Source: a virus. From it: 64,000 nt of DNA. Position numbers and translations under genes: made by a program. Each line of letters opens with the position of its first letter. Within the stretch, counting starts at the first letter, position 1. Location of the stretch: positions 111,873 through 175,872 of the IMG/VR virus record IMGVR_UViG_3300045988_078601; one strand, given 5' to 3'. Positions 44,148 through 59,348 of this stretch are shown one piece after another. The notes below the pieces were generated by a model that was given only the letters and a program-made list of their open reading frames with translations, did no database searches and was not told the DNA's origin.

Positions 44148-45269
44148 TTAGAGTGCTAAACCTCCTCTATACAAGGAAGGACGACTTTCAAGGTTAAGAA
44201 TCTTGAAGTAGTTCTTACCAGAATCGTTCTCCGTTATGATAATTCCATCTTTGTTAAGTGGCTCCACAACAGTTCCATAACCACCGAAAGACTCTCCAAC
44301 TTGCAAGAACTCAACTGACGTAGGAGAGTTAATCCTTCTAGTGTAGATGTCCAAATCATCCTCATCCAGAGTATACTCTTCGCCATCTGAATTCTTCTCT
44401 TTTGTGCCAACTTTAGCAAGAGTTTCCTTAAAGATGTCTACGGAGTTCTCCTCGTTATAGTAATAGCAAACCATCTTGGCGGTATAAGAATACTTAGCTT
44501 GCTCAACATTGATGAATTGCTTGAACTCAGAAACAGGACAGTTATGAATGTTAACTTCCTCTACAATACATTTCAAAATATCGATAGTTGATATAGCCAA
44601 GGAGTCAATAAATTCAAGGATTTCCTGAGTTCTACTCTTGTCCACCAAACAATCATCGAGATATTCCATAACGACTTCTGACGGAAGATTTCCAAAGGAT
44701 TTCTTATAACGAATTCTTGAGGGTCTTCCAATAAAGTTTTCATTGATATACAACTTGTTAGTTGTCAATATGAATACTCTACGATGTTGGCTATTGAAGA
44801 CTCCGTCCATGATAGACAACAACTCCAAATCGTGGCCCTTATCAGTGTTAAAATTCTTTTCAAACTCGTCAAAGAACAAGACGCACGGACAATTTATCTT
44901 GGAAATAAAGTCTGCAAGACCGGGATAAGGAGCATTGATAATAATTACAGGAAGCTTCGTTTCATTCGCAATAATCTTAGCAGTAATAGTCTTACCTGTG
45001 CCCTTGACACCATTAAACAGAATTCCTAAATTTCTTGAGGTATTCTCGAAAGTCTTCATTATATGCTTAATGAGTTTCGATTCCATACCATAAACCTTGA
45101 AATCAAAATGAAACTCATCTGCAAAGTCTTCCAAGAATATTTCATTACGATCAGAATCGTAGTTCATTGTATACACTCTTTTGCTAAGAGCGTCTAATAC
45201 TTGGATATTGCTATCCACTTGCTTAAGTACTCTACCGTTCCTAAGCCAAACAATACTTGGATTTTCCAT
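44148..45269 (-). CDS. classical AAA+ ATPase
   Basis: Walker A GVKGTGKT, Walker B VLFFDEFE, sensor-1 ILTTN, Arg finger RPSR; 373 aa. Confidence 0.75.
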   Translation of the reverse strand: MENPSIVWLRNGRVLKQVDSNIQVLDALSKRVYTMNYDSDRNEIFLEDFADEFHFDFKVYGMESKLIKHIMKTFENTSRNLGILFNGVKGTGKTITAKIIANETKLPVIIINAPYPGLADFISKINCPCVLFFDEFEKNFNTDKGHDLELLSIMDGVFNSQHRRVFILTTNKLYINENFIGRPSRIRYKKSFGNLPSEVVMEYLDDCLVDKSRTQEILEFIDSLAISTIDILKCIVEEVNIHNCPVSEFKQFINVEQAKYSYTAKMVCYYYNEENSVDIFKETLAKVGTKEKNSDGEEYTLDEDDLDIYTRRINSPTSVEFLQVGESFGGYGTVVEPLNKDGIIITENDSGKNYFKILNLESRPSLYRGGLAL

Positions 45270-45270
45270 A

Positions 45271-46218
45271 TTATAAATCTAAAAATGCTTTAACGTATTT
45301 ATTATTAGTGTCGAGGTTAGACCTCATTCCATTCTGAAGGATTACAAGATCATCTGCATTCATACCCTTAATAAGACAGATTCTTAATATGTCCTTCAGG
45401 GGCATACTGCCATTTAAAACAGTTATAGAACCCAGACCTCTATAAGAGAAGATTGACTTAATGCCAGCATCTTTCGTAAGTGCTCTAAACGTATGACAGA
45501 ATTCAAGAAGTTCTTTATCTCCTTTAGTTATGTTCTCCTCTATTCTTGGAGAGTAAGAGACAGTAACAATATTGAATCGGTCAAGAGAGGCTCCGTCAAG
45601 ACAATATCTTCCAGAATAGACATGGTCTGCACCAGTTCCAAAGGTATTTCCAGCTGCGATGAGTCTAAAGTCCTTATGAGCTTCTATCTTCCCAGTAGGG
45701 AAGTCAAAATATCTATTAGCAATAGCAGCATTAAGAATAACTAAGACTTCTGGAATAGAAGCATCTAATTCATCTAGGAAGAATAATCCTCCGTTCTTGA
45801 ATGCTTTATAAAATTGAGTTTCATGGTATATACCATTTGCATCAATAAAGCCAGTAAGCTTATATTCCTGAGTTATAGCATTAGTGAAATAAAATTCGAG
45901 TCCCAATGCCTCAGCTATCTGCTTACAGATAACATTCTTTCCAGTTCCAGCCTCACCACTTAAATATACAGGTAAGTCTAGAGAGACTAATTTAAGAACA
46001 GTTTTGAATTTCTCATGAAAAATTCCTGTAACTTTATGCGTAATTGGGCCTTGTTTTACCTCTACCACTTGGGGAAGGGGTCCATAGGTTTCCAAAATAT
46101 GCTTTTTCACTACAGGAACAACCTCATTATACACTTTGTCAACACACGTAGATATTACGGTGCTGTTAACTGCCGAGTCTATTAATTCGACCAGTTCTTT
46201 TACTCTATCTTCTTGCAT
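45271..46218 (-). CDS. AAA_5/MoxR-like ATPase
   Basis: Walker A LSGEAGTGKN, Walker B LFFLDELD, IAAGNT sensor; 315 aa. Confidence 0.7.
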   Translation of the reverse strand: MQEDRVKELVELIDSAVNSTVISTCVDKVYNEVVPVVKKHILETYGPLPQVVEVKQGPITHKVTGIFHEKFKTVLKLVSLDLPVYLSGEAGTGKNVICKQIAEALGLEFYFTNAITQEYKLTGFIDANGIYHETQFYKAFKNGGLFFLDELDASIPEVLVILNAAIANRYFDFPTGKIEAHKDFRLIAAGNTFGTGADHVYSGRYCLDGASLDRFNIVTVSYSPRIEENITKGDKELLEFCHTFRALTKDAGIKSIFSYRGLGSITVLNGSMPLKDILRICLIKGMNADDLVILQNGMRSNLDTNNKYVKAFLDL

Positions 46219-47365
46219 TTTCTTTTATATATGCTACTATTTGTTTAACATTAAAATCCATTTTTCCACGAATTAACTCTAGAGTGAGCACAACCGTATT
46301 AGGTTTATTGCCTAGCATCTCCTGGGATAGCATATGAGAAGGTGAACTACCATATCCAGAAGCAAAGTAATCGTTCTTAAGACCTGGTACCGTTTCTAGG
46401 AACCTAAATCCAATACGTCTTAGCATAGACGGATGAGCTATAGGGAAACATAGCTTTTTCAAATCCAATCTATCCTTATAATCCTTTAATTGCACAGTAC
46501 CTAGAACAGCTTCTCCTCTCGCATAACCAGAATACATAGAGCAGCTTAAGCTAATAGATACTCCAGAATTTTCAAGCAATTGTATTGCTGAAAGCATGGA
46601 GATACCTGCCTTAACGAAGTCCTCCCTAGCTACATGCCAAGGACCTTGAGGAAAATAAATTATATCAACGGTTTTTACTTTTTGAATTTCTCTAGTACGG
46701 TCATCCATAGAATGTGGTAACCCCATCAAATACTTTGGTACATTTGGAGAACTACCTACTACAGAGGACAGTGGTTTACTTTTAGTGTCAAGAAATAATT
46801 CTTTGAACTTGTTTACATTCTCAGCTATTCCTTGCTTAATTTTAGGCAATATACTAACATACCCATTTCTGAATAGATTAACTGCCTCATCATAACTACT
46901 AGTTCCGCTAAACTCTGATCTTTCAGAATTAGAGCTAGTGGATTCTCTCATAGCTTGATTATTGTCTCTATGATTCAGACATGATAACAGTTCATCTATT
47001 GAGTGGAAATGTTCGTGTATAATCTTTTTGAATTTACTAGTGTTATAAACTCTAATAAATCCTTGTGTCCCAGCTTTGGAGAAAGTATTACCTAAAAGTT
47101 TGGAATTTATTTCTTCAGGAACTACCTCTTCGTCCTCATCTTCCTTGTCTTTTGTATCGGAAACTCTAGGAGTCTCAGGAATAGGGATTGGCTCTGGAAC
47201 TACTTCGGGCTTAGGTTCTGGAGTAGGTTCTGGAATAGGTTCAGGTTCTTCAGGTTCTTCAGGTTTCTCCTCCTTTTCTTCTACGGTAACATTTTTCTCT
47301 CTTTGGAATAGCCTTCTTAGCCACTTCCAAAAAGTTTTTAAAAAAAGAATCTTCACTTTAATCAT
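46205..47365 (-). CDS. hypothetical protein with Pro/Glu-rich low-complexity N-terminal linker
   Basis: EEKEEKPEEPEEPEPIPEPTPEPKPEVVPEP repeat region then ~280-aa globular part; overlaps AAA_5 gene by 14 nt. Confidence 0.35.
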   Translation of the reverse strand: MIKVKILFLKTFWKWLRRLFQREKNVTVEEKEEKPEEPEEPEPIPEPTPEPKPEVVPEPIPIPETPRVSDTKDKEDEDEEVVPEEINSKLLGNTFSKAGTQGFIRVYNTSKFKKIIHEHFHSIDELLSCLNHRDNNQAMRESTSSNSERSEFSGTSSYDEAVNLFRNGYVSILPKIKQGIAENVNKFKELFLDTKSKPLSSVVGSSPNVPKYLMGLPHSMDDRTREIQKVKTVDIIYFPQGPWHVAREDFVKAGISMLSAIQLLENSGVSISLSCSMYSGYARGEAVLGTVQLKDYKDRLDLKKLCFPIAHPSMLRRIGFRFLETVPGLKNDYFASGYGSSPSHMLSQEMLGNKPNTVVLTLELIRGKMDFNVKQIVAYIKENARR

Positions 47366-47389
47366 TTATCTAAATTTTCTAAAGGTTAG

Positions 47390-47471
47390 TAGGGTAGGTG
47401 GGACTCGAACCCACACGTCCGAAGACGACAGATCCTAAATCTGTTGCGGCTGCCAATTACGCCACTACCCC
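47390..47471 (-). tRNA. tRNA-Leu (anticodon TAG), type II
   Basis: Anticodon stem-loop ACAGA-TTTAGGA-TCTGT, variable arm CGTCTTCGGACG, T-arm GTGGGTTCGAGTCCCAC, acceptor GGGGTAG/CTACCCT. Confidence 0.8.
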
Positions 47472-47646
47472 ATAAATCAGAACACTTTACTAGTTTTAGT
47501 ATGATAGTCCTCCGAAACTAGTACAGAGCAAGCCACTTTATTTACCATCAAAAGAGCAGTAGGGATACATTAACCATCAGTATCTTTGGACTAGACCAGC
47601 TAGCTTCTAATTAATAATAATTGTAATAATATGCATAAATAAAATT

Positions 47647-47667
47647 TTTGCTGTGAGTGTTCTTATT
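47647..47667 (-). promoter_or_regulatory. conserved motif copy 1 (plus-strand TTTGCTGTGAGTGTTCTTATT)
   Basis: One of 5 related copies; ~175 nt upstream (minus sense) of tRNA-Leu(TAG). Confidence 0.3.
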
Positions 47668-47680
47668 AATATGATACAAT

Positions 47681-47968
47681 TCACGTATTAAATCCGTAAC
47701 CGAAGCCAAGTTTAGTAACAATATGCCTTCCAACTTGACCTATTTTCTTTCGTAGTCTTGATACAGTAGTATCAATAGCTCTTAAGGATACCTCAGTATC
47801 CCACACACTTTGCATAATCTCTTTTCTGGTGTAGATTTTATTTCTATGACTTAGAAGAAAGACTAGCAAATTATACTCAGTCTTAGTAAGACTAACTTCC
47901 TTGCCATCTAAGTAACATTCCTTCTTGTCAAGGTCTATTATTAGGGTTTCAAATTCAATTCTATTCAT
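47681..47968 (-). CDS. winged-helix DNA-binding protein (OmpR/PhoB trans_reg_C-like)
   Basis: LTKTEYNLLVFLLSHRNKIYTRKEIMQSVWD...TVSRLRKKIG matches the trans_reg_C fold pattern; no receiver domain. Confidence 0.65.
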   Translation of the reverse strand: MNRIEFETLIIDLDKKECYLDGKEVSLTKTEYNLLVFLLSHRNKIYTRKEIMQSVWDTEVSLRAIDTTVSRLRKKIGQVGRHIVTKLGFGYGFNT

Positions 47969-47983
47969 ATTTTTAATATTTTG

Positions 47984-48055
47984 TCTCTCCTTCCAGATTC
48001 GAACTGGAATTATCTGTTTAGAAGACAGAGGTTCTATCCATTGAACTAAGGAGAG
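47984..48055 (-). tRNA. tRNA-Arg (anticodon TCT)
   Basis: Acceptor CTCTCCT/AGGAGAG, anticodon loop CTTCTAA, T-arm TCCAGTTCGAATCTGGA. Confidence 0.8.
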
Positions 48056-48143
48056 GAAAAGGACAATTTAGTTTTTCAGGTCGTTTCGGACTCTCTGCGA
48101 AAAGTTTTATAGTGCTATACGCTTAACCACTCGTCCTTTTAGC

Positions 48144-48218
48144 AGAACACTTACTCTTAGGATTCGAACCTTACCTCTCAGTTAGGAACTGAGTGTGCTA
48201 CCATTACACCACATGTTC
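48144..48218 (-). tRNA. tRNA-like gene, possible tRNA-Arg (anticodon CCT) with irregular T-arm/acceptor geometry
   Basis: D-loop TAATGGTAG, anticodon stem-loop CTCAG-TTCCTAA-CTGAG, T-loop TTCGAATCC, but 3 extra nt between T-arm and acceptor and a G:A mismatch in acceptor. Confidence 0.4.
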
Positions 48219-48248
48219 TATAAAATGGCGAACAATAGAAAGTAAAGA

Positions 48249-48270
48249 TTTTGCTGTATGTGTTCTTGTA
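48249..48270 (-). promoter_or_regulatory. conserved motif copy 2 (TTTTGCTGTATGTGTTCTTGTA)
   Basis: ~30 nt upstream (minus sense) of the tRNA-Arg(CCT)-like gene. Confidence 0.3.
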
Positions 48271-48337
48271 GCTTGTAAATATAAGTACTCTTTCTAACTT
48301 GTCAAAGTTAAAAAGTGTTAAGCTTATGTCTTAAAGA

Positions 48338-50263
48338 TTACTTCACTTCTTCAAAGTGTTCCTCACCTTCAGAAACTTCCGGTTGTTTAGGCTTGTTCTC
48401 GATTTGTTTTCCTCCAAACATATCTTTTACAGTGTCTGCAATTGGGATAGAACGGAGCAAATCAAGAGCAGGATTCAAGTTTTCTGCAGTCTTAGCCATA
48501 AAGTTACCGGCAGTATTTTCGTTACCATATACAGTAACCTGTCCAAGATGGATGTGTTCAAACATCTTAGCAGAAGCATCAGCAATACCGGATAACTGGT
48601 CAACTGTCTTATACTGCACAATCATCTGAGGTGTCATACCAGAATCAATCATCTTCTCAATAGCCAATGCAGGGGCCATCTCAATAGCCTGTACTTTATC
48701 AGCTTCAGCCATCAAAGATGCTCTCTTACCTTCAGCCTCAGCCAGAAGTTTCTTACGAGTACCCTCGGCTTCTGCTTCCAACTGCATCTTTGTAGCATTT
48801 GCTTTTGCTTCAGCCTCCTTAGTAATCTCAGCTGCCTTAGCTTCTGCCTCAAGAATAGCTTTCTGCTTGATTGCTTCAGCTTCAATTGTTACTTTCTCCT
48901 TCTGCTTCTGAGCAGGAACAATCACCTCTGCAGTCAATTTAGCTTCAGCAGCCAATGCTGCAGCCTCATTTACTTCAACTTGTCTTTCCTGCTTAGTCTT
49001 CTCAATAGCCATCTGAGCTTCAACTTTAGAAGTACCTGCAATCTTCTCAGCTTCTGCCTCAGCTTGAGCTGCCTCTCCTCTTGCTTTAGATACTTCAATA
49101 GTAGCTTTCTGTTCAGCTACCCCAGCCGCCTTATCAGCTTCTGCAGCTCTCTGACGCTTCTGTGATTCATATTCAGCTACTTTAGCTTGCTGTTCATTAA
49201 CAGCTTTCTGAGTTTCAGCCTCTTGTTCTTGCTCAGCCTTAGCCATACGAATCTGTTTCTGAGCTTCAGCTTCTGCTTGAGCTGACAATGCCTCAGCTTC
49301 TGACTTAGCAACAGATGCTACAGCCTCAGCTTTACGAGCTGCTGTTGCTGACTCTGCTGCAGCCTGAGCCTTAGCAATGTTAGCTTCCTTTTCAGCCTGT
49401 TGTTCAGCGACTCCGGACTCCTTAACCTTTTCAGCCTCAGCCAATTTAATTTGCTTCTCCTGCTCAATCTCAGCTACACGAACTTCTTGTTCCTGCTTGG
49501 TCTGAGCTACCTGAGTTGCACGAGCTTTTTCTGCATCTGCTACAGCAATTTCTTTCTCCTTAATAGTCTCTGCAATTCGGATCTGTCCTTTCTTTTCCTC
49601 TTCAGCAATATCAGCCTCTGCTTGAGCTTGTGCTTCAGTAGCGGCTTTCTTACCAAGATTCTTGATATAGTTAGCATCATCCGAAATGTCAGCATTATTA
49701 ATATTGATAATACTGAAACCAATCTTATTCAATTCAGTTTCAATATTCTCTTTTGCTTTACCTAAGAACTTAACACGGTCAGAGTTAATTTCCTCAATGG
49801 TCATAGTAGCCATCAAACTACGCATTTCACCAATAAGGATATCCTTAATCTGTTCCGATATTTCGTTAGGGGAAGCAGTCAAGAAACGACTGGCAGCATT
49901 TTGCATAAGTTCATCAGTAGTACCAATACCAGTAGTTAGAGTTACAGGAATCGTTACTTTAATCATCTGACTTGATACACCAATAACCGATGTTTGAATT
50001 TGAATCGGTTTAAGAGACATTTTTCGCCAGTCTTGAATTATAGGGAATACAAAAGTACCACCTCCATGAATAATCTTAGAAGGAAGAACAACTGTTTCAT
50101 TCTTTCCTGTAGTTGGATTAGTAACAGTTTTCTTACCTGCTTTACCAAATACTACCAAGATTTCATCACTTGCGCAACGACGATAACGTGACATCAAACC
50201 AATTAAGGTCAAAATTACAAGGATTGCTACAATCCCTGCAATAATCAAACTAGAAGTAATCAT
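48338..50263 (-). CDS. SPFH/band-7 (flotillin/YqiK-like) membrane protein with long Ala/Glu-rich coiled coil
   Basis: N-terminal TM IIAGIVAILVILTLIGL, band-7 core, then ~250 aa of AEAEAQ/EKAR heptad-like repeats; 641 aa. Confidence 0.8.
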   Translation of the reverse strand: MITSSLIIAGIVAILVILTLIGLMSRYRRCASDEILVVFGKAGKKTVTNPTTGKNETVVLPSKIIHGGGTFVFPIIQDWRKMSLKPIQIQTSVIGVSSQMIKVTIPVTLTTGIGTTDELMQNAASRFLTASPNEISEQIKDILIGEMRSLMATMTIEEINSDRVKFLGKAKENIETELNKIGFSIININNADISDDANYIKNLGKKAATEAQAQAEADIAEEEKKGQIRIAETIKEKEIAVADAEKARATQVAQTKQEQEVRVAEIEQEKQIKLAEAEKVKESGVAEQQAEKEANIAKAQAAAESATAARKAEAVASVAKSEAEALSAQAEAEAQKQIRMAKAEQEQEAETQKAVNEQQAKVAEYESQKRQRAAEADKAAGVAEQKATIEVSKARGEAAQAEAEAEKIAGTSKVEAQMAIEKTKQERQVEVNEAAALAAEAKLTAEVIVPAQKQKEKVTIEAEAIKQKAILEAEAKAAEITKEAEAKANATKMQLEAEAEGTRKKLLAEAEGKRASLMAEADKVQAIEMAPALAIEKMIDSGMTPQMIVQYKTVDQLSGIADASAKMFEHIHLGQVTVYGNENTAGNFMAKTAENLNPALDLLRSIPIADTVKDMFGGKQIENKPKQPEVSEGEEHFEEVK

Positions 50264-50274
50264 TATAAAATAAA

Positions 50275-50775
50275 TTATTTAGAAATGTAATAAATTCCGT
50301 CTTTATAAGACTTAATAGTTAATATGTCTCCCACCTGAACTTCAGTGTCAGCTTTACATGTAATTTCTGTGTAGTTGGGAGCATCGACTTTACATACACA
50401 GTTTCCGTTAGGTAACGGAACATAGACTATAACAACCTCTCCTACTAAATCAGTCTTGGATTTTGTAGTAGGCTCAGAATTAAACTTCATGCACAGTTTA
50501 TACACGAAGTATAAAATGACCATAAAGATAATTCCTACACCACATGCAAAAGAAATAGTCAATGCTGTGACCTTTCCAGAAAGCATCAACCATCCTGAGA
50601 AACCCATGGCAAAATGAACCAGACCTTTAAAGGATAGGAGGTCGTTAACACTGAAATCTGCTTCACCATCAAAATCTACATCCAAATCGGTTTCTAGGAA
50701 ACCGAAATTGGATAAGATAAATTGAATAATGAAGATACTATAGGATATAATACCTAAGATATAATACCATTCCAT
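50275..50775 (-). CDS. NfeD-like membrane protein (SPFH partner)
   Basis: Multi-TM N-terminus plus C-terminal beta-rich soluble domain; immediately upstream of the SPFH gene as in nfeD-SPFH operons. Confidence 0.6.
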   Translation of the reverse strand: MEWYYILGIISYSIFIIQFILSNFGFLETDLDVDFDGEADFSVNDLLSFKGLVHFAMGFSGWLMLSGKVTALTISFACGVGIIFMVILYFVYKLCMKFNSEPTTKSKTDLVGEVVIVYVPLPNGNCVCKVDAPNYTEITCKADTEVQVGDILTIKSYKDGIYYISK

Positions 50776-50782
50776 GTTAGTG

Positions 50783-52009
50783 TTATTCTAAATGAAACAA
50801 TGAATTTTCCAGTACAACGTCTCTTCCTATATCATCCCCATTATGTATCTGGTTAATAGTGAGAACTTGAAGTTTACGGACTCCCTCCATGACTTGCTTA
50901 GAAACATCTTCTGGATATACAGTTGTTATGACATGCTCTAGGCAAATTCCCCTATAGCAGCGTAAATTCTGTTCTTTCTCTGCAAATGCTAAGATCGCAT
51001 TGAAAATTGAGATCCATGTCAAGACCTTTTCAAAGTTGTAAGTCGGTCTAAGGAGTCTGAACTCTATAGTTTTGTTGACGTTATAGCATACAGCATTGAC
51101 AAAGTTTACCCAATAATACCGAGTAGGAATCCGCCATTTGGCCTCACGTCTTATGTCATTAGGATGAGGCTGAGTAAGACTACCATAAAATCTTCTTCCT
51201 ACAAGATATTCATAAAGCTGGTCGAAGTCCTTAAATGATGGAAGCTTCATACAATAATCCTTGCCGTTCGCTTTGTAATGCGCACTATGAAAGGTTTCTG
51301 GTGGAACCAATCCTCCTATCTCAGATTCAAGTCCCTTACATAACAAGTATGCTCTATACAAACTTTTAGGTTCCAAGTTGAAACCTCCAAAGTGCATATG
51401 TAGAGAACATTCCTTATTAAAGGCAGTATATTTCCGTAATGTCCCTAACTGCTGACGCAATAAGGACAAACCAGAATTACCTTCCATAACCACAGTAGAA
51501 TACTCTAGACCAGAAATTGAACCGTCTCGCAATGGAATTAGTCCATCTCTGAAGCAGAGATCTTCTGGAACATAACCCATAGAGGTTTCAAACTCTAGAC
51601 CAAAGGAGTATTTCAAGTGCTCAGCAACTTTAAATGTTTCTGGATGTACTATTTGTTGCTTTCCCTCGAAGATGTTAAAGCTTTCTACAGCTTCATATCT
51701 CCTTTCAAAGTGATATGGGAAACTTCCAAATCCCATTTGATACTGCTCTATTGGCAATAAATTAGAAGGGAAATCGACAACAGAAACATAACAGCCTCTG
51801 TAGACACTATATACCAGGACATCCTTTAATAGTTCTTTATCACCCTCAAAATATCTTAATTCTCCCTCAACGTAAGCTAAGAATCTGATGATGGATTCCG
51901 ATCTACTACTGTATCCAAGTACTAGAGTCCCAGGAAGGTGTTGTACAGCCACTAATGCACAATTTTGTCTGGAGATTTTTCTTCCAGTTATTTCATCAAT
52001 GACTTGCAT
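50783..52009 (-). CDS. carboxylate-amine ligase (GCS2/YbdK-like glutamine-synthetase-fold amidoligase)
   Basis: FGLEFETSMG and SLHMHFGG match YbdK motifs GIELEMQ and GQHVHVG; 408 aa. Confidence 0.6.
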   Translation of the reverse strand: MQVIDEITGRKISRQNCALVAVQHLPGTLVLGYSSRSESIIRFLAYVEGELRYFEGDKELLKDVLVYSVYRGCYVSVVDFPSNLLPIEQYQMGFGSFPYHFERRYEAVESFNIFEGKQQIVHPETFKVAEHLKYSFGLEFETSMGYVPEDLCFRDGLIPLRDGSISGLEYSTVVMEGNSGLSLLRQQLGTLRKYTAFNKECSLHMHFGGFNLEPKSLYRAYLLCKGLESEIGGLVPPETFHSAHYKANGKDYCMKLPSFKDFDQLYEYLVGRRFYGSLTQPHPNDIRREAKWRIPTRYYWVNFVNAVCYNVNKTIEFRLLRPTYNFEKVLTWISIFNAILAFAEKEQNLRCYRGICLEHVITTVYPEDVSKQVMEGVRKLQVLTINQIHNGDDIGRDVVLENSLFHLE

Positions 52010-53376
52010 TCTTCCTTAATCGTTTTAAAGTTAATATCCAATTTATCAAGGACTTTAGATTTTATAGGCTCTTTTACTCCTTTATATGTAGTACCTATAC
52101 GAGTTCCTGCTGTAAATCTGGTTGCTGAGACAGAAGTCATCGGTTGCCAGATCCCAGTAAATAGCACGGAACCGGTAGCGGACACAGCCTGATACCAATA
52201 ATCACCTTTTGGATAGATGCCATCTACGCTTAAGAACCGAATAACGTTCTCAAACTTAAAGAAAAAGTCCTTATCCGAGAGTTTGCTTTCCTTCTTAAGG
52301 TTAGTAAGAAAGTTATAACAATGCTTATTTTTCAAAGCTACACCACTGAAAAACCACACATCGCAGTCTTTTGACAATTTACCTCCGACTCTTCCATAGT
52401 CATTAATTGACAACTTGCCATGAATTTTCTTTCCTTTATAGGAATAGATATTTCTAAGCATGTCAACACTGATATAGTTGTCATATACCATAGAGGTTTC
52501 ACTATCAAACCAGGAATCATCATAGTAGTCGTCATAGCTACCATAACTTCCATACTTTCCATAAGAACCATGCCCATAATAAGCACCTTCATATAATGGA
52601 TATGTCTTAGCAACAGTAGTAACTTCCTTACTTTGCTGCATATTGGTTCTATCGTACTTTTCAACAAGCACAAGAGACGTACCATTAAACTCTAAGAGCT
52701 CGTTAGTTCTAAGAGAATAAGTAGTACAATCTCTTCTCAGAGCCATCAGATACATCCAAATAGAAGAGAAAACCAGCTCACGTTTTGTCTTGTCAATGCA
52801 GTAATAGAGTGGTCGTTCAGCTTCTGCGTCCTTAGAATAAGAGGTCTTCTTGGAAGAACCTCTAAACAACAACGTTCTTGGAGCTATTCCTCTATAGTCA
52901 ACGATTGCAAATACTGCACCTCCATTGTACTCTCCCAGAGCACTATAACCAGCATGATAGAAGATATGAGCCATAACTTGAGAATCAGTCATGCCAGTAA
53001 TATCCACATCAGGAATATATTTCTTAGCAAGCTTCTCATAGTTATAAATTGTCCCATTATGCATCAATACAAATTCAACCTTGCCGTCCTTAGTAATTAC
53101 AACTGGTTGAGCAGTCTTCTCACTAATAACTCCGACTGAAGCTTTTCTACAATGAACTAGAGCAACTGTAGATTTTTCTACTTCCTCAAGGAGTTTACTT
53201 TCTTGAAAGTAAGAGGAGAAGAACTTATTTTCTCCGACGCCATATTCATAACGTCCATCAATAAATACTCCACAAGAATCGCCACCTCTTGCGTCGTTTG
53301 AAATACCTAAAGAACAAAATGTAGCGTAATCAAATGTCCTAGGAGTTTTATTTATAATACCTGCTATACCACACAT
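51988..53376 (-). CDS. class-II (Ntn) glutamine amidotransferase domain protein
   Basis: N-terminal MCGIAGI nucleophile-Cys signature; 462 aa with uncharacterised C-terminal half. Confidence 0.7.
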   Translation of the reverse strand: MCGIAGIINKTPRTFDYATFCSLGISNDARGGDSCGVFIDGRYEYGVGENKFFSSYFQESKLLEEVEKSTVALVHCRKASVGVISEKTAQPVVITKDGKVEFVLMHNGTIYNYEKLAKKYIPDVDITGMTDSQVMAHIFYHAGYSALGEYNGGAVFAIVDYRGIAPRTLLFRGSSKKTSYSKDAEAERPLYYCIDKTKRELVFSSIWMYLMALRRDCTTYSLRTNELLEFNGTSLVLVEKYDRTNMQQSKEVTTVAKTYPLYEGAYYGHGSYGKYGSYGSYDDYYDDSWFDSETSMVYDNYISVDMLRNIYSYKGKKIHGKLSINDYGRVGGKLSKDCDVWFFSGVALKNKHCYNFLTNLKKESKLSDKDFFFKFENVIRFLSVDGIYPKGDYWYQAVSATGSVLFTGIWQPMTSVSATRFTAGTRIGTTYKGVKEPIKSKVLDKLDINFKTIKEECKSLMK

Positions 53377-53387
53377 ATAGTTTATCC

Positions 53388-54179
53388 TTACATGATGTTA
53401 TATGTCTTAACAATATTTTGTGCCAAATCGGCATCGCTGTCATTGATAGCTCTTACAACATAAGTTGAATCAATCAGTCTTCCACCTCTTGATGCAGCTG
53501 CCAAAGCTTTCTGAACTTGTCTCCATACAAACTGCAGAGTCTCTACGTCTTTCATCATAGCTGAACTCAAGACACGATACTCTACACCATAAGAAGTCAA
53601 ACGGAAGCATCCAGCTTTTCCATATAAAGAGCGTCTACGTTTATCCTTATCATAGATAACAGATGGGACTCCAAGGTACATATCAAGATACTTTACAATG
53701 AGAATAGAAGCATCGATATTTGGATTTTCATATCCTATATGGATATGGAATCCGGCACTTCTTAAGTTGGTCTTGGAACCTTCTGGCTTAGGATTAGCGG
53801 CCTCTGTATAGGCATTGTAGTCTACATCACACCCGAACAATTGAGCTTGTGGACTTTGAAGTTGATTCTTATCCACAGTCTTAGAAGCAGCACAAAGGAT
53901 ACCATAGTCAGGGTTAAGGTTCTTAACAAACTTGTCAATGTACTGTTTCATGTACTCAATGTTGTTCACAAATGACGCCTCGTCGGAAACTGGTGGAATA
54001 TTAAATTCTGCCAGGATATTATCGGTTTCTAGACCAAAACCAGAAGGCATATCCTCAGCCACATAAGGATTACCTTTTTCACCAGGAATTTTTCCTACAG
54101 AAGAAACAACTTTCTTTGTCTTTTCGTTAATAATAAAGAGTTCTGGATCTGCGCCGATAGTAATTTTACCTAATTTCAT
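53388..54179 (-). CDS. amidoligase-like protein (GS-fold, Amidoligase_2-like)
   Basis: GADPELF and AGFHIHIGYE (HxHxG) motifs; 263 aa. Confidence 0.5.
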   Translation of the reverse strand: MKLGKITIGADPELFIINEKTKKVVSSVGKIPGEKGNPYVAEDMPSGFGLETDNILAEFNIPPVSDEASFVNNIEYMKQYIDKFVKNLNPDYGILCAASKTVDKNQLQSPQAQLFGCDVDYNAYTEAANPKPEGSKTNLRSAGFHIHIGYENPNIDASILIVKYLDMYLGVPSVIYDKDKRRRSLYGKAGCFRLTSYGVEYRVLSSAMMKDVETLQFVWRQVQKALAAASRGGRLIDSTYVVRAINDSDADLAQNIVKTYNIM

Positions 54180-54798
54180 CTACTAATTTCTTTACTAAGT
54201 TATTAATCATTTTTGCTACAGGTGAGTTAGGAATCATCTCAGGATGTCCCTGCACAGCTAGACATTTAGGAAGTCCGTCTTTGTGATAGTAAACTATCTC
54301 TGGTTCTCCATAGCTGCGTATATAGTCAGAGTCTATATTCTCACCTCCATATGTTGTGCTTCTACACTCTTCTGACCGAAATAAAATGTTATAATCCTTG
54401 CGATTCAAGTTATAGGGATACTGCATCTGATGATGTGTAGAAGTTATTTGATAACATACTTTACCATCAGTAATACCGTGCGTGTAACCTATAGCGTGGT
54501 TATCGCAATGTTGAACCAATAAACCACCATTCATAACACAAAGGAATTGAGATCCTCTGCAAATTCCAAGACAAACTTGCTTGTTTGGAATGACACTCTC
54601 AAATACTTTCTTTTCCTCTAAATCCCTTTGAAGATTAGAGTAAGTTCGAGGGTGTTTTTCGCACTTATAAAGAGATGGGTCAACGTCCTCACCTCCAGTA
54701 AACAAGACTACATCTGCCTCTTTAATGTCATTAACAAGAGAGGCGTTTTCGAGGAAGTTAGCGTAGCCAACTGAACCTCCTACAACAAATACTTTCAT
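54166..54798 (-). CDS. class-I glutamine amidotransferase / gamma-glutamyl hydrolase-like (peptidase C26-like)
   Basis: Catalytic Cys in LGICRGSQ and His-Glu in VQGHPE. Confidence 0.65.
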   Translation of the reverse strand: MKVFVVGGSVGYANFLENASLVNDIKEADVVLFTGGEDVDPSLYKCEKHPRTYSNLQRDLEEKKVFESVIPNKQVCLGICRGSQFLCVMNGGLLVQHCDNHAIGYTHGITDGKVCYQITSTHHQMQYPYNLNRKDYNILFRSEECRSTTYGGENIDSDYIRSYGEPEIVYYHKDGLPKCLAVQGHPEMIPNSPVAKMINNLVKKLVDEIR

Positions 54799-55544
54799 TA
54801 TTTTCTTTTACTCTTAATTGCGTTATACATCTTCATATAAGTAGGCTTTCTCAACTCAAATAATTCCTCCGACCAATACTCTAAATCTCTGTATCCGAAT
54901 CCTTCAATTTCCTCAGGGAGTTTAGTTTTCTTTATGGATAGAATTTTGTATATACTGTTAAGTCTATCTACTTCTCTAATTCTCTCACGTAATTCATCCT
55001 TTCTAAGAGGCTCATGAATACTAGCTTCAGCTACTGAATGACCTTCTCCAACATAATCAGAACAACAATTGGAAACAACATTAAATATATTAGCAATTGA
55101 TTCAAATCTGAATGTAGGATCTTTCTTCAGTCTATAAGCATCTTTCAAGATAACATTATATGGATATTCGTAAGTATATCTTAACCAAGTGAGAACATAT
55201 TTATGAAAAGTTGCAGGGACTTCTTTAAGGTGTATTACAACTTCATAATATATCTGTCCATCATCGGTTGCTTTCTCTAACACTCTGTACCTGAATGGAT
55301 ACATTCCTCTTAGTTGTCTAAGATGATTTCTTACCTCGTGTCTGCTAAAGAGACATGCATTCGAGTGGTGATTCTTGACGCAGAGATCTACCCCAGGATA
55401 CAATCGGACAGTATAGATAATATCAGAATTGTTGTTCATTCTCGAAAATACGTTTGAAAAACAAACATCAACTCCCATTTTTCTACTATATGTCCCAGTG
55501 CAAGAATATTCTGTATGATAACTTAAAAAACTAAATTCTTTCAT
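54798..55544 (-). CDS. hypothetical protein (first gene of the amidoligase/GATase block)
   Basis: 248 aa; 1-nt overlap with GATase1-like gene. Confidence 0.3.
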   Translation of the reverse strand: MKEFSFLSYHTEYSCTGTYSRKMGVDVCFSNVFSRMNNNSDIIYTVRLYPGVDLCVKNHHSNACLFSRHEVRNHLRQLRGMYPFRYRVLEKATDDGQIYYEVVIHLKEVPATFHKYVLTWLRYTYEYPYNVILKDAYRLKKDPTFRFESIANIFNVVSNCCSDYVGEGHSVAEASIHEPLRKDELRERIREVDRLNSIYKILSIKKTKLPEEIEGFGYRDLEYWSEELFELRKPTYMKMYNAIKSKRK

Positions 55545-55547
55545 TAC

Positions 55548-55581
55548 AAAAAAAAAACGCCGCCCTTAGAAAGAGCGGCGC
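55548..55581 (-). terminator. rho-independent terminator downstream of 55597..56658
   Basis: Minus-strand hairpin CGCCGCTC-TTTCTAA-GGGCGGCG followed by T10. Confidence 0.6.
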
Positions 55582-55596
55582 ACGGTTAGTGAGACA

Positions 55597-56658
55597 TTAC
55601 TCCTTAACTTCTGCATCATTATCCTGTTCCTCAGGTACTGCAGGAGCTGCCGGCTGTTTAACGACCTGGGGCTGAGCTCCAAACATCTGAGCAAAAGGAT
55701 TGGCGCCACCGCTGAATGCAGACATCATAAGGAGGTCTTTGATGTCCATATCGCCCTTACCAGAGAGCATCATCAGCATCATCGGATTCATGTTCATAGC
55801 ACCACCGTTCTGAGTCATCATCATCAAAGGCAACAGAGATTTCTTGTCATCCTTGTCTGACAAAGCGAGCAACATCATCGGATTGATCTGTCCGCCAACG
55901 CTACCAGCCAAAGAAACAACGACACGAATCATTGTCTGATTGAACAAGAAGTCTTTGATAGTGTGAACAGTCTTACCAGCACCAGTATAACCGATGGCAG
56001 TAATCTGATCACCTTTGATCTTTGTTACCTTAGCATAGCTACGTTCCAAAGCAATGACATCGCCGACAGCGAGCTGTTCTTTCGGTTTGCTAACGATGAA
56101 TACCGGCAAGTTCAGTGTCAATTCTTCAGGATAAGAAGTCAGACTGTTGTTCTTGTCAATAGCTACGTAACCCTGGCTTGTTGCAACACAGATGTTACCG
56201 TCAGTTGCAATACGAACACCTTCTGCCTCAACCGGCATAAACATAGATTTCAAACGATCAGCGAAGCCTTTGATAGAATTTTTTGTAGTCATGTTGTTGT
56301 TGTTTTTAGATGAGTTAATAATAGGTTTAGCAGATTTACACCAAGTCTCGAAGCGGATGATGTTGTCCACGCTCGTAATTCCGACTTTCTTCAAGCCATA
56401 CTCGCGAGTCAGAGTATCAAGATAGTCACGTGTTTCAGGACTCAAGTTGTCAAGGGATTCCTCGATAGCCTTAATCACGTAAATAGAGTTACCTTTCTTA
56501 GTGATAATATTATCACCAGCCTTAATGTCTGCAAGGCAGGGGTTCAGTTCCACTGAGGCAATTCTGAACTTGTTCTGCTCTTTAGCAAAGTCAATAACTT
56601 CTCCCATGTTCTTAGGCATGAAGGGGAGATTCGAAGTGTAAATTACGAATTTTACCAT
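55597..56658 (-). CDS. hypothetical protein with Met-rich C-terminal repeats
   Basis: 353 aa; C-terminus NPMMLLAL...LMMMTQNGGAMNMNPMMLMML...LLMM; strong terminator suggests high expression. Confidence 0.35.
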   Translation of the reverse strand: MVKFVIYTSNLPFMPKNMGEVIDFAKEQNKFRIASVELNPCLADIKAGDNIITKKGNSIYVIKAIEESLDNLSPETRDYLDTLTREYGLKKVGITSVDNIIRFETWCKSAKPIINSSKNNNNMTTKNSIKGFADRLKSMFMPVEAEGVRIATDGNICVATSQGYVAIDKNNSLTSYPEELTLNLPVFIVSKPKEQLAVGDVIALERSYAKVTKIKGDQITAIGYTGAGKTVHTIKDFLFNQTMIRVVVSLAGSVGGQINPMMLLALSDKDDKKSLLPLMMMTQNGGAMNMNPMMLMMLSGKGDMDIKDLLMMSAFSGGANPFAQMFGAQPQVVKQPAAPAVPEEQDNDAEVKE

Positions 56659-56721
56659 AAATTAAACAAAAATTTAAAAGTTATATACTTCCCTTTCGGG
56701 TTTATTTAATCCAAAATCAGT

Positions 56722-57327
56722 CTACATAGAAGTTTTCAGTATTCTTTCTCTTAGTCTTTCTCTGTCTTTACCACAATAATAATCGCAGTGGCAAGAAAAA
56801 CTTCCCTTATAATATCTTTCTATGCAGAAGTCACAAGTGTCGAGAGATAATTCAGAGTTTTCAATATAGTCCGGATTGTGAGTTCCTAATCGGTTCTCTA
56901 TTCTCCACGCTAATTCGAAATCCCTATTACTAGGAAATATAACTGAATCTTGCCATTTAGCATATCTTGTTTTTGCAACTCTTAGTTTATTTTGTCCAAA
57001 TAGACTGTACAGAACTCTCCTGACTGCTTCAGGAACAGCTAAAGGAACAATAAGAGCTCCATGCGTTATATATAAACCAAATGGACCATTCCTAGATGAT
57101 CTATTACAATGCCAGTTTCTTTCATTATCTAAATAAACTACATTCCCATTAATACCAGTAATAGAAATACTACTGAGGTTCCCATATACTCTAGGAAAGG
57201 AAGCTACATACGTAGTATCTTTAAAAGGAGGAATAGTAATTTCTTTGTCTAAGATTATCCTGTCTTCATATATTTCTGTAATAAAAGCATAATTATCTAC
57301 TTCTATGTCATTAATAAAAAGTCTCAT
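56722..57327 (-). CDS. Cys-rich hypothetical protein
   Basis: 201 aa; C-terminal CDFC...CHCDYYC cluster. Confidence 0.3.
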   Translation of the reverse strand: MRLFINDIEVDNYAFITEIYEDRIILDKEITIPPFKDTTYVASFPRVYGNLSSISITGINGNVVYLDNERNWHCNRSSRNGPFGLYITHGALIVPLAVPEAVRRVLYSLFGQNKLRVAKTRYAKWQDSVIFPSNRDFELAWRIENRLGTHNPDYIENSELSLDTCDFCIERYYKGSFSCHCDYYCGKDRERLRERILKTSM

Positions 57328-57581
57328 TTTACAGGAGATTGTTTAAGTAACACCATTCCAGTCTGGTACTTACTAAATACAAGAAATGTATCTTTCGGAG
57401 TTATTATCTCATAAAGATACCCAGAAGGAACGTCAATTACTCTCTGTTTATATCCAGAAACGGTAGGAACGGTAAGAGATACAACACCTTCAGTATTCTT
57501 TTCTACCTCTATCTCCTTACACGAAAAAAGCGTCAACAGTAAACTTACTGCCAACGCTCCAATAAAGAATTTCTTTTTCAT
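57324..57581 (-). CDS. putative lipoprotein
   Basis: MKKKFFIGALAVSLLLTLFSC signal peptide with lipobox-like LFSC. Confidence 0.4.
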   Translation of the reverse strand: MKKKFFIGALAVSLLLTLFSCKEIEVEKNTEGVVSLTVPTVSGYKQRVIDVPSGYLYEIITPKDTFLVFSKYQTGMVLLKQSPVK

Positions 57582-57602
57582 ATTTATTTAATATTAAAGT
57601 TG

Positions 57603-57673
57603 CATACCCTGAAGGACTCGAACCTCCAACGACGGTTTTGGAGACCGGCATGTTACCATTACACCAAGAGTAT
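57603..57673 (-). tRNA. tRNA-Trp (anticodon CCA)
   Basis: Acceptor ATACTCT/AGGGTAT (one G:U), anticodon loop CTCCAAA, T-arm GGAGGTTCGAGTCCTTC. Confidence 0.7.
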
Positions 57674-57681
57674 AAAATTAG

Positions 57682-57770
57682 CGGAGGGTAAGGGATTCGA
57701 ACCCCTGGGACGCTCATCACGCCCGCCGATTTTCAAGACCGGTGCATTAAACCAGCTCTGCCAACCCTCC
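57682..57770 (-). tRNA. tRNA-Ser (anticodon TGA), type II
   Basis: Acceptor GGAGGGT/ACCCTCC, anticodon stem-loop CCGGT-CTTGAAA-ATCGG, long variable arm, T-loop GGTTCGAATCC. Confidence 0.8.
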
Positions 57771-57879
57771 ATAAGTGTTTCCTACTAATGCGTCCATCCG
57801 CCAATACTCTCGGAAACGTGATAATCATATAGAGCTCTTATATGATTCTCGAGTTTGTCAGTTAGCCATCCCGACTTCG

Positions 57880-57967
57880 CGGTGGGTGAGAGGCTCGAAC
57901 TCTCGCGACGCATAAACGTCCTAACGGTTTAGCAAACCGTCCCCTTCACCAACTTGGGTAACCCACC
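57880..57967 (-). tRNA. tRNA-Ser (anticodon GCT), type II
   Basis: Acceptor GGTGGGT/ACCCACC, anticodon stem-loop ACGGT-TTGCTAA-ACCGT, long variable arm, T-arm GAGAGTTCGAGCCTCTC. Confidence 0.8.
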
Positions 57968-58022
57968 TTTAGATAGGGCACACTATGCCCTATCAATAAT
58001 TTACCATCTTCGACAGGTACCC

Positions 58023-58262
58023 TTAGCCCTTCATAGCATGAATAGCTGTAGCAAGATAAGCTTTTCCTACTAACTGTCTGAATTCAGGTTTGTCAATCAT
58101 TGCTCCAACCAACATGTTCATGAGCTTCCCACCTTCTCCTGCAATCAGAGCAGAAGTTGTTTCACCATCGTCAACCATTGTAATGGTTGCTACTACTTTC
58201 TTTTGGTCCTTAACTAGCTTAGAGCTAAGTTCCTTCAAATCAGGTCTTTCTATTTTTTCCAT
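58023..58262 (-). CDS. hypothetical protein (start trimmed to MEKIERP)
   Basis: Longer ORF 58023..58337 would overlap tRNA-His; ATG at 58260-58262 preceded by an A-rich leader. Confidence 0.3.
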   Translation of the reverse strand: MEKIERPDLKELSSKLVKDQKKVVATITMVDDGETTSALIAGEGGKLMNMLVGAMIDKPEFRQLVGKAYLATAIHAMKG

Positions 58263-58290
58263 AATAAAAAAAAAATTAAAATGCGCAATG

Positions 58291-58362
58291 GGGTAAATGT
58301 AGGAGTCGAACCTACTTCTTGAGAGCCACAATCTCACATTCTACCGTTAAACTAAAATACCC
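58291..58362 (-). tRNA. tRNA-His (anticodon GTG) with G-1
   Basis: 5' GGGTATTT.., anticodon stem-loop TGAGA-TTGTGGC-TCTCA, T-arm GTAGGTTCGACTCCTAC, discriminator C; two T:T mismatches in acceptor stem. Confidence 0.6.
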
Positions 58363-58369
58363 ATATTAG

Positions 58370-58444
58370 AGGCTGGAGTCGGATTCGAACCGACGGTAAC
58401 AACGGTTTTGCAGACCGCGGGCTTAACCACTCACCCATCCAGCC
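58370..58444 (-). tRNA. tRNA-Cys (anticodon GCA)
   Basis: Acceptor GGCTGGA/TCCAGCC, anticodon loop CTGCAAA, T-arm GTCGGTTCGAATCCGAC. Confidence 0.8.
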
Positions 58445-58503
58445 ATTTTACAGAGTACTATTCTAAACGTGTCAAATTAAAAGTTTGATGTTTGAAAAAA
58501 TAA

Positions 58504-58524
58504 TTTGCTGTATGTACTCTTCTA
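58504..58524 (-). promoter_or_regulatory. conserved motif copy 3 (TTTGCTGTATGTACTCTTCTA)
   Basis: ~60 nt upstream of tRNA-Cys 5' end. Confidence 0.3.
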
Positions 58525-58720
58525 CTAACGATTCTAAATGTATACTTTATAAAGTAGTTTAGGATATGCTTTTGAGTGCGGACTTTCATTCAAAAGCCTC
58601 GATGCTTTAACTCTCAACTCAGATAAGGCTTATCTGTATAGAATTATCGAATTCTAAGTCTGACATATCCCCTTGTGGACTAACCACTTGGCCTTTTTAA
58701 AGTAAAACTACTCTTATAAG

Positions 58721-59286
58721 TGGAGATGGAGGGAGTCGAACCCTCGTCCAAACAATCCTTAATAATAGGATAACGTGTGTCTCATTTTTATTTATCAGCT
58801 AGTGAGTTCTAGCATATAGATAATTTTACTCGACTTACTAACTGCGAGTTTATCAAATTACCAAACTTTTAGGCTTGACTGGTTCACAGTCAGCTCCACC
58901 ACCTATTTTTTAACACCAAAAATAGGAAACGGTGTTTAGTGGTCCGTCAATCCCAAGGCTAATCTGACCTTTCATTTAACGACGTATAGGAGATTCAGCT
59001 CTACTAACCTGTGGCCTTCGAGTTAAGCACAGTGGCTTATATCCTTCTACTGTACACCTCTTCTGTTTCTAGGTCTCTCCTTGTAACCCGACACATAACT
59101 CAAAGCTAATGTGCCAGCTGCTTAGGCAGCCAATCTTACGCTATTGTTTGCATTTATTGTTTTCCTTCGTTTAAAGAGATCGCGCTCTACACGTCCTACT
59201 ATCTCGTAATCGCTGTCAAAACCAAGCATCCCCGAGATCAGAAATCCATCTTTACACTTTTGCTCTACCAACTGAGCTATCTCCCC
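58721..59286 (-). ncRNA. ssrA: tmRNA (ssrA)-like gene, ~566 nt; tag ANNSVRLAA
   Basis: 5' end GGGGAGATAGCTCAGTTGGTAGAGC (tRNA-like acceptor+D-arm). 3' end GGACGAGGGTTCGACTCCCTCCATCTCCA closely parallels E. coli tmRNA 3' end GGACGCGGGTTCAACTCCCGCCAGCTCCA, with G3:U70. Internal tag frame GCA AAC AAT AGC GTA AGA TTG GCT GCC TAA (59151..59122) starts GCA-AAC and ends LAA-stop as in canonical tags. Confidence 0.55.
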
Positions 59287-59340: not shown

Positions 59341-59348
59341 CTCGTATA

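Follow-up and report, generated by a model that had tools for sequence, protein, structure and literature searches.

Side-by-side location of a phiEco32-type amidoligase cassette and an NfeD-flotillin operon, probably two independent units, in a putative crAss-related gut phage

We analysed a block of seven consecutive minus-strand genes, here called A to G, at positions 48338-55544 of a 64,000-nucleotide (nt) stretch of viral DNA (positions 111,873 to 175,872 of IMG/VR record IMGVR_UViG_3300045988_078601; this whole stretch is referred to below as the window). We found that the block is probably made up of two independent cassettes which lie side by side without functional interdependence: a phiEco32-type amidoligase system, A-E (cassette 1), and an NfeD-SPFH operon, F-G. 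A preliminary description of this DNA had presented the seven genes as one block in which enzymes are coupled to a membrane scaffold. All seven open reading frames (ORFs) were found with exactly the coordinates it had given, and its list of contents was also correct: two ligases of the glutamine synthetase (GS) fold type, a class-II and a C26/class-I glutamine amidotransferase (GATase), an NfeD protein and an SPFH protein. The coupling to a scaffold was not borne out, and the combination of ligases and GATases proved to be one already known in phages.

The genes, all on the minus strand, are A (54798-55544; 248 aa, no family match), B (54166-54798; 210 aa, a C26-type class-I GATase), C (53388-54179; 263 aa, a phiEco32-type COOH-NH2 ligase), D (51988-53376; 462 aa, an N-terminal nucleophile (Ntn) class-II GATase with an extra C-terminal domain), E (50783-52009; 408 aa, an Amidoligase_2-family ligase), F (50275-50775; 166 aa, an NfeD-family membrane protein) and G (48338-50263; 641 aa, a flotillin-like SPFH protein).

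Results

Cassette 1 and F-G occur separately in related phages

We surveyed co-occurrence by searching 70 relative loci (labelled L plus a number) with the window proteins using tblastn, and by mapping the synteny of all window ORFs. The order A-B-C-D-E was constant in relatives carrying cassette 1, and nearly every one of the 52 contigs with G had F immediately before it. A-E were found upstream of F in 8 of these 52 contigs and no E was found beside F in the other 44, while among the contigs with C (n = 16) F-G followed E in 7 and did not do so in 9. The same separation was seen on a shared syntenic backbone. Between the flanking markers, cassette 1 is missing in L042 and L057, which carry F-G; in L007 the downstream marker comes straight after cassette 1 and F-G is missing.

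Complete genomes gave the same picture. In csAssE-Sib (151,256 bp) F (hidden Markov model (HMM) search, 5e-33) and G (7e-117) are adjacent, and no A-E were found in the genome by tblastn or by profile HMMs built from our own alignments. The complete genome of cr108_1 contains B-E, yet it is absent from the six GenBank phage records with a G-like SPFH protein. Conservation of all seven genes together in related genomes, which had been set beforehand as a check on the single block, was therefore not found, since csAssE-Sib and cr108_1 each carry one part. The juxtaposition of A-E and F-G is, as far as the surveyed sequences go, specific to one sub-clade and not conserved.

The closest relative, L003 (contig IMGVR_UViG_3300045988_054096), has a deletion which fuses the first 18 codons of g03, the gene upstream of A, to approximately codon 44 of B (9469-10014). 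As a result g03 and A are lost; B is also truncated and frameshifted, C lacks two residues of FHIHIG and E has an HNH-containing insertion, while F and G are intact at 72% and 84% identity. Cassette 1 appears to be decaying in this relative while the NfeD-SPFH pair is kept, although it should be noted that this is a single metagenomic assembly in which sequencing error is possible.

These patterns bear directly on the single system put forward in the preliminary description, in which an NfeD-flotillin scaffold would gather the ligases and GATases at the inner membrane to modify an envelope precursor or membrane-proximal target, for example by amidation or gamma-glutamylation of peptidoglycan or capsule intermediates so that superinfection is blocked. 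The two cassettes dissociate both in related contigs and at the level of whole genomes, and the closest relative is losing the one and keeping the other. C was found in 318 GenBank records compared with 6 for a G-like SPFH protein, so cassette 1 works in hundreds of SPFH-less phages. A-E also have no membrane anchors: in a scan for transmembrane (TM) segments these were found in F and G only, and A-E are soluble. What recommends a single system is that A-G are contiguous, probably co-transcribed and without an internal terminator, that the arrangement is kept in at least 8 IMG/VR contigs and several Sequence Read Archive assemblies, that L009 has a second, divergent flotillin gene close to cassette 1, and that the phiEco32 enzymes have been suggested to modify the cell wall against superinfection, as PMC10580990 summarises from Iyer et al. 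2009. As an obligate coupling the single system is largely refuted, and we consider it very unlikely overall.

Gene spacing and transcription

The junctions within the block are tight (A/B −1, B/C −14, C/D +11, D/E −22, E/F +7 and F/G +11 nt). However, this spacing is the norm across the genome: all genes of the window are on the minus strand (GC content ~36-40%), intergenic gaps have a median of 2.5 nt and neighbours lie ≤ 15 nt apart in 63% of pairs, so abutting genes tell us nothing about functional coupling between A-G.

An intrinsic-terminator-like hairpin (55557-55581, minus strand; 11-bp stem with 7 GC pairs, followed by a T10 tract) was found between g03 (55597-56658) and A, with its T tract stopping 3 nt before the ATG of A. 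It marks the upstream edge of the block, and expression of A-G would need read-through. At the other end, the 369-nt gap 3' of G holds a tRNA-Arg gene and a weak tRNA-like element. No terminator-like site was found between E and F in this phage, and as the block sits between the hairpin and the tRNA-containing gap, A-G are probably expressed together. A scan for sigma-70 promoters was uninformative, as counts were equal to the shuffled expectation; the consensus used does not cover Bacteroidota-type promoters.

The enzymes of cassette 1

Profile searches found the GS-fold and GATase families which had been predicted for the block (COOH-NH2_lig, Amidoligase_2, Peptidase_C26 and GATase_6/7). C matched the Pfam family COOH-NH2_lig (PF14395, "phage phiEco32-like COOH.NH2 ligase"; 8.5e-11, 42 bits, cut-off 25) and phrog_3815 (6e-68), and gave no meaningful match to PDB sequences. 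Residues D11, E13, D53, E58, R140, H147, R182, R193, E200 and R202 are invariant among 15 sequences with identity down to 32%. Homologues of C were found in 318 GenBank phage records and in > 547 IMG/VR loci, the latter being a lower bound because the pattern-based search misses the L053 contig, which is known to carry C.

E scored 19.3 bits (1.1e-3) against Amidoligase_2 (PF12224), below the Pfam cut-off of 22, and also matched phrog_2443, "amidoligase" (4.2e-15); PF12224 was matched by 11 of 13 aligned homologues (best 1.1e-8). G137, E139, E141, H204, Y298, N302, E316 and R318 are invariant, and the N-terminal ~130 aa have no family assignment. GCS2 was not matched by E in Pfam or NCBIfam at E ≤ 0.1 and Amidoligase_2 is its sole family match, so E should be labelled as an Amidoligase_2 protein.

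B was matched by Peptidase_C26 (4.5e-16, 59.7 bits, cut-off 20.5), by the Pfam GATase model (1.3e-5, 25.4 bits) and by phrog_7218, "glutamine amidotransferase" (1.6e-36), and homologues were found in 59 phage records. The triad Cys80-His185-Glu187 and the motifs GGxDxxPxxY, GxCRGxQ, HHQM and QxHPE are invariant in 12 homologues, including Zobellviridae proteins. The best NCBIfam matches of B, which are weak, are gamma-glutamyl hydrolases, and these together with the preference for the C26 over the generic GATase model lean towards a hydrolase role.

The N-terminal ~245 aa of D form an Ntn class-II GATase domain (GATase_6 2.6e-15, GATase_7 1.8e-12 in Pfam). The protein begins MCGI, and the catalytic Cys2, R77, N107-G108 and D131 are invariant in homologues. 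This domain is followed by a variable linker rich in Y, G, S and D and then by a ~170-aa C-terminal domain with no match in Pfam, NCBIfam or PDB sequences. Matches of D to the NCBIfam models for AsnB, GlmS and PurF cover the GATase domain only, and by its sequence the C-terminal domain is different from the PP-loop synthetase domain of AsnB.

A is a soluble member of a family specific to crAss-like phages and is homologous to cr108_1 gp_22630. It had no family match among Pfam, PHROG and NCBIfam models and no meaningful match among PDB sequences; its predicted fold, a ferredoxin-like alpha/beta sandwich with a helical C-terminus, points to no function. The 248-aa version used here is backed by conservation of the N-terminal 80 residues, whereas automatic callers give 168 aa. 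In crAss-like phages A accompanies the amidoligase cassette as an accessory gene. Kinship of A to the cassette-flanking proteins KBNP1711 gp090, gp088, O4_59 or O4_54 was considered and rejected (hhalign probabilities < 1%).

Most of the labels in the preliminary description thus stand: A has no family match in any profile library scanned and was rightly left without a function, B (described as GATase1/gamma-glutamyl-hydrolase-like) has the intact Cys-His-Glu triad of a C26-type class-I GATase, C (GS-fold amidoligase-like) has the conserved acidic, His and Arg residues of a PF14395 protein, and D (Ntn GAT-II, MCGIAG) has GATase_6/7 matches and an invariant Cys2. E had been called YbdK/GCS2-like, which is correct as to the carboxylate-amine ligase superfamily and incorrect as to the family.

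The gene upstream of A, g03 (55597-56658, minus strand), encodes 353 aa with no family match and no meaningful match to PDB sequences, and has a conserved Met-rich C-terminal tail (PMMLLAL...LMMMTQNGG...NPMMLMML). It is usually found directly upstream of A in relatives, and in more distant relatives this slot is filled by an ATP-grasp gene. The idea that g03 is a second A paralogue, as found in cr108_1, was rejected since the proteins share no similarity and a strong terminator separates the genes.

Several cassette genes are interrupted in relatives. The break in E falls exactly at aa 297/298, after the nearly invariant R297 and before the invariant Y298. It is caused by group I introns (Rfam RF00028, 88 and 51 bits) or, in L003, by an insertion that carries an HNH-like ORF of 158 aa. 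Insertions of ~1 kb each interrupt C at aa 143/144 (L014) and B at approximately aa 81 (L004). These insertion features are located at 14174-14458 and 10430-11595 in L014, 13010-13459 and 8619-9624 in L004, and 13000-13845 and 8716-8919 in L003. The copies of B, C and E in the window are uninterrupted. Targeting by group I introns is a hint that the cassette genes are conserved enough to serve as intron targets.

Cassette 1 belongs to a known phage system

We compared A-E to enzyme sets in other phages and found that they are the known cassette of phiEco32, LUZ24, Zobellviridae and crAss-type phages, which is already annotated in public genomes. The phiEco32-type system was reportedly predicted computationally by Iyer, Abhiman, Burroughs and Aravind in 2009, in Mol Biosyst 5:1636. 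Our literature searches returned annotation-level mentions of the phage ligase/GATase set only and no experimental or biochemical study of it, in agreement with its earlier description as experimentally uncharacterised. A hint that the cassette matters in infection comes from the phenotype of a Pseudomonas phage under directed evolution, in which the amidoligase and GAT-II genes picked up missense changes in each of two independent lines (PMC11450229).

The phiEco32-like phage KBNP1711 carries a COOH-NH2 ligase, an amidoligase, a GAT-II annotated as "GlmS" and a RimK-like ATP-grasp protein, and the same set is found in the LUZ24-like phage UFV-P2 (PMC3890496). The Zobellviridae phages O4 and CVT22 carry a C26-type GATase, a GAT-II, a COOH-NH2 ligase, an amidoligase and an ATP-grasp protein. 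The core shared between A-E and the phiEco32-type cassette is therefore COOH-NH2_lig, Amidoligase_2 and the Ntn GAT-II, with the Zobellviridae also sharing the B-like C26-type GATase. Placement in the early/replication region is likewise shared, as are homing elements within or between the genes. A-E differ from the phiEco32-type cassette in the addition of the crAss-specific A and in the low identity of C (~32-36%). A protein of ~200 aa between C and E in KBNP1711 has no detectable homology to B.

The gene order is B-C-D-E here, C-x-E-D in phiEco32/LUZ24 types and B-x-D-C-x-E in O4. As order varies between lineages, it is the enzyme set which is conserved and no particular pairing. We rejected the pairing of B with C and of D with E, which had been suggested by the B/C and D/E overlaps and by adjacency in the phiEco32/LUZ24 types, because in O4 and CVT22 D is found beside C, and B lies apart.

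The closest annotated copy of the cassette is that of cr108_1 (MT774385, gp_22626-22632), which consists of an ATP-grasp gene and two A paralogues followed by B-C-D-E, at 37-50% identity. It differs from the block described here in the upstream ATP-grasp gene, the second A paralogue, a uracil-DNA glycosylase instead of NfeD-SPFH after E and the lack of a detected G-like SPFH protein. A search by tblastn with four phage ATP-grasp proteins found no RimK-like ATP-grasp gene in the window (best E 0.2) or in close relatives. In the more distant relatives L012, L013 and L015-18 an ATP-grasp gene adjoins A.

The NfeD-SPFH pair

F has ~3 TM helices and a C-terminal five-stranded beta domain resembling the oligonucleotide/oligosaccharide-binding (OB) fold, and its predicted structure matches the structures of YuaF, 1510-C and YbbJ. 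The Pfam NfeD model (PF01957) did not match the window protein and matched 2 of 15 homologues at E 0.038, and one homologue has been named by JGI with the COG1585 description; ~1000 homologues were found in the protein collection. Residues 30-45, in the TM1-TM2 loop, hold an invariant acidic motif, DxDxDxDGxxD, which is possibly cation-binding (predicted local distance difference test score, pLDDT, from AF2 < 50 at residues 27-40).

G is matched by Band_7 (5.3e-22, 79 bits, cut-off 23.6) and, among PDB sequences, by the eukaryotic flotillin-1/2 at ~1e-20. Its score against the NCBIfam FloT model NF058507 was 132 bits (2.6e-38) compared with an equivalog cut-off of 700, so G is flotillin-like and not a FloT orthologue. 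It is composed of an N-terminal membrane anchor (aa 1-28), an SPFH domain (34-224), a coiled-coil region of ~300 aa in which A, E, K and Q make up 60-80% of residues ~200-520, and a C-terminal domain. The earlier labels of both proteins were upheld: F is NfeD-like by predicted fold rather than by a clear sequence match, and G is an SPFH protein with a Band_7 domain and a long A/E-rich coiled coil.

F-G is a standard NfeD-SPFH operon carried by a phage. The NfeD gene is likewise directly upstream of the SPFH gene in yuaF-floT of B. subtilis, ybbJ-qmcA and yqiJ-yqiK of E. coli and PH1510/PH1511 of P. horikoshii. F shares TM helices and a C-terminal OB-like domain with the proteins of these operons, and G resembles flotillins in its N-terminal anchor, SPFH domain and long EA-rich coiled coil. 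In contrast to the known operons F-G is phage-encoded, and F has the invariant DxDxDxDGxxD loop, is not recognised by Pfam NfeD and has no ClpP-like protease domain. No paper describing an NfeD-flotillin pair in phages was found in our literature searches, and PADLOC defence models gave no match to eight proteins, F and G included.

The solved cages of flotillin, HflK/C and QmcA-YbbJ suggest by analogy that G and F probably assemble into an oligomeric cage attached to the membrane; such a flotillin cage would be built on the host inner membrane during infection. Possible roles include membrane stabilisation, control of host proteases (e.g. FtsH), phage exclusion and lysis timing.

Three contigs of 140-186 kb with G at 76-77% identity (L079, L080 and L081) are filed in GTDB as metagenome-assembled genomes (MAGs) of Gastranaerophilales, Bacteroides sp. 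and Clostridium sp. These are almost certainly phage contigs which were mis-binned into bacterial MAGs. The search of GTDB genomes for cellular homologues of G returned mis-binned phage contigs only, so it was uninformative as to the host or the origin of G.

Genome context and neighbouring genes

From the gene content we infer that the source is a large gut phage related to crAss-like phages, with the window lying outside its structural genes. The window encodes a family-A DNA polymerase, RNA and DNA ligases, NrdD, a primase, DnaB-like and other helicases and AAA ATPases. IMG/VR relatives are mostly contigs of 165-193 kb from human-gut samples. B-E have their closest annotated copy in the crAss-like phage cr108_1 (Steigviridae), and F-G have theirs in csAssE-Sib, a gut phage of 151 kb with annotations of crAss-type "muzzle" and "ring" virion proteins.

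The surroundings of the block are rich in small RNA genes. Eleven tRNA genes (Leu ×2, Met, Arg, Trp, Ser ×2, His, Cys, Pro and Thr) are found at 42725-61578 (minus strand), and a twelfth tRNA-like element, weak and truncated (33 bits), lies just 3' of G at 48158-48211 (minus strand). A tmRNA was identified at 58718-59233 (minus strand; RF00023, 99 bits, E 1.6e-37), on which ARAGORN was silent and which is also present in relatives L003 and L014. A 591-aa protein encoded at 61732-63507 (minus strand) matches phrog_850, "RNA-binding protein", and DUF2828/DUF7788 (TROVE/Ro60-like), and fits these tRNA- and tmRNA-rich surroundings; the annotation of csAssE-Sib includes a "Ro sixty-related protein".

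A region at 36552-39335 (minus strand) encodes, next to one another, a phosphoribosyl pyrophosphate (PRPP) synthetase (phrog_619, 2e-54), a 143-aa ORF and a nicotinamide phosphoribosyltransferase (phrog_448, 2e-188); the synthetase and transferase make up an NAD+ salvage set of the type reported to act against NAD-depleting defences. At 44148-47365 (minus strand) three adjacent genes encode an AAA ATPase (phrog_2376), a CobS-like AAA_5 ATPase (phrog_249, "porphyrin biosynthesis", 3e-57) and a DUF7192 protein whose N-terminus is rich in Pro and Glu. This trio resembles a phage CobS/CobT-like pair with an extra ATPase, and shows partial synteny with F-G in L057. An OmpR-type winged-helix domain of 95 aa (Trans_reg_C, 2.4e-20), which stands alone without a receiver domain, is encoded at 47681-47968 (minus strand), and this gene is kept beside the block in relatives.

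Discussion

The metal- and ATP-binding residues of C and E are intact, as are the nucleophiles and glutamine-binding residues of B and D. C and E would each activate a carboxylate as an acyl-phosphate in an ATP-dependent step and then join it to an amine. B and D could either pass glutamine-derived ammonia to the ligases, so that a carboxylate becomes a carboxamide in the manner of MurT/GatD, or strip gamma-glutamyl groups from intermediates, following the logic of PuuA/PuuD and EgtA/EgtC. This scheme draws on the established enzymology of GS-fold ligases and class I/II GATases. The product is probably an amide derived from glutamate or glutamine, either a small molecule or a modification of a macromolecule. 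It would be made early in infection, and a target in the host or the phage could receive it as a peptide-like modification.

Pairs of a ligase and an amidohydrolase are found in several cellular pathways: PuuA/PuuD (gamma-glutamyl-putrescine), EgtA/EgtC (ergothioneine), MurT/GatD (peptidoglycan amidation) and PafA/Dop (pupylation). These combine an ATP-dependent carboxylate-amine ligase, of the GS/GCS fold or another, with a class-I (C26/GatD) or class-II (EgtC) hydrolase. Cassette 1 resembles the PuuA/PuuD-type pairs at superfamily level only; B best matches C26-type hydrolases.

PafA and Dop are generally known to belong to the same carboxylate-amine ligase superfamily as the ligases described here, and this raises the question of whether cassette 1 could modify proteins or peptides. 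The ligases would then act like PafA or, together with a RimK-type ATP-grasp enzyme, build or amidate glutamate tails on a protein of the host or the phage, and B and D would serve as Dop-like deamidases or trimmers. The usual partner of the cassette is indeed annotated in RefSeq as a RimK-like "ribosomal protein S6 glutaminyl transferase", but the ATP-grasp gene is absent from the window and from close relatives. A peptidase of the M42 type (glutamyl aminopeptidase-like) adjoins the cassette in L009. No candidate tag or substrate protein was identified, however, and A and g03 have no informative similarity, which leaves protein modification an unlikely function.

The location of cassette 1 among replication and nucleotide genes, both here (DNA polymerase, ligases, NrdD, primase and helicases) and in cr108_1 (primase, uracil-DNA glycosylase, nuclease, ribonucleotide reductase and dUTPase), would suit hypermodification of DNA or nucleotides, in which an amine or GATase-derived ammonia is added to a carboxyl-bearing base or nucleotide as protection against restriction. 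However, placement in the early/middle region is non-specific. Amidoligase and amidotransferase Pfam matches co-occur with thymidine-hypermodification genes in viral metagenomes (PMC8989533), and amide ligation onto a carboxyl handle on DNA is a demonstrated phage strategy (PMC12783734). Analogues of such a pathway would be CmoY, which ligates an amide on 5-carboxymethylcytosine, and the glutamyl/putrescinyl thymidine pathways. CmoY is nevertheless an AsnB-like, AMP-forming ligase with another fold, and D does not have that synthetase domain. Given also that no 5-hydroxymethyldeoxyuridine (5-hmdU) kinase, aGPT-Pplase, CmoA/CmoX or dUMP/dCMP hydroxymethylase was found among the ~30 window ORFs scanned, we regard hypermodification as quite unlikely.

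Several points weigh against our account of A-G as two independent cassettes, of which the first makes an amide product. No substrate, product or target was identified for cassette 1, neither A nor the C-terminal domain of D had an informative match in fold or in sequence, and B and D could be either ammonia donors or gamma-glutamyl hydrolases. The absence of cassette 1 from contigs with F-G refers to a distance of 10 kb, except for csAssE-Sib, and the pattern-based locus search is incomplete, as seen from the L053 contig. In this phage one transcript probably spans both cassettes, and their adjacency persists across relatives at 50-75% protein identity. In L009, a more distant relative, a gene for a divergent flotillin-like protein of 490 aa is also present 2.4 kb from cassette 1 on the opposite strand, which leaves room for a looser functional link. 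This gene has no obvious NfeD partner, and the opposite strand after cassette 1 (12000-16609) also encodes an M42-type peptidase and a P-loop ATPase.

Such a link would exist if the F-G cage had been recruited in this clade as a platform for A-E, with the amide product placed on an envelope precursor at the inner membrane and serving, for example, superinfection exclusion or lysis timing. The adjacency at 50-75% identity and the flotillin gene of L009 would then be traces of it. We find recruitment of this kind highly improbable, the least probable of the readings considered here, and two cassettes without interdependence remain the probable one.

Both cassettes are of known kinds, and the amidoligase set has already been annotated in public crAss-like genomes. 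The phiEco32-type cassette is among the most widespread phage enzyme sets without a known product, and this locus adds large, abundant phages of the human gut to its carriers, with a reduced version that has no ATP-grasp. The locus hints that A, B and ATP-grasp are dispensable in nature and that the persistent core consists of C, D and E. The question of the product is no easier to test here than in cultured E. coli and Pseudomonas phages. The NfeD-flotillin operon is common in large gut phages, with ~1000 NfeD homologues and presence of the pair in most of the 52 contigs with G, and is a modest but real lead on how large gut phages handle the host membrane.

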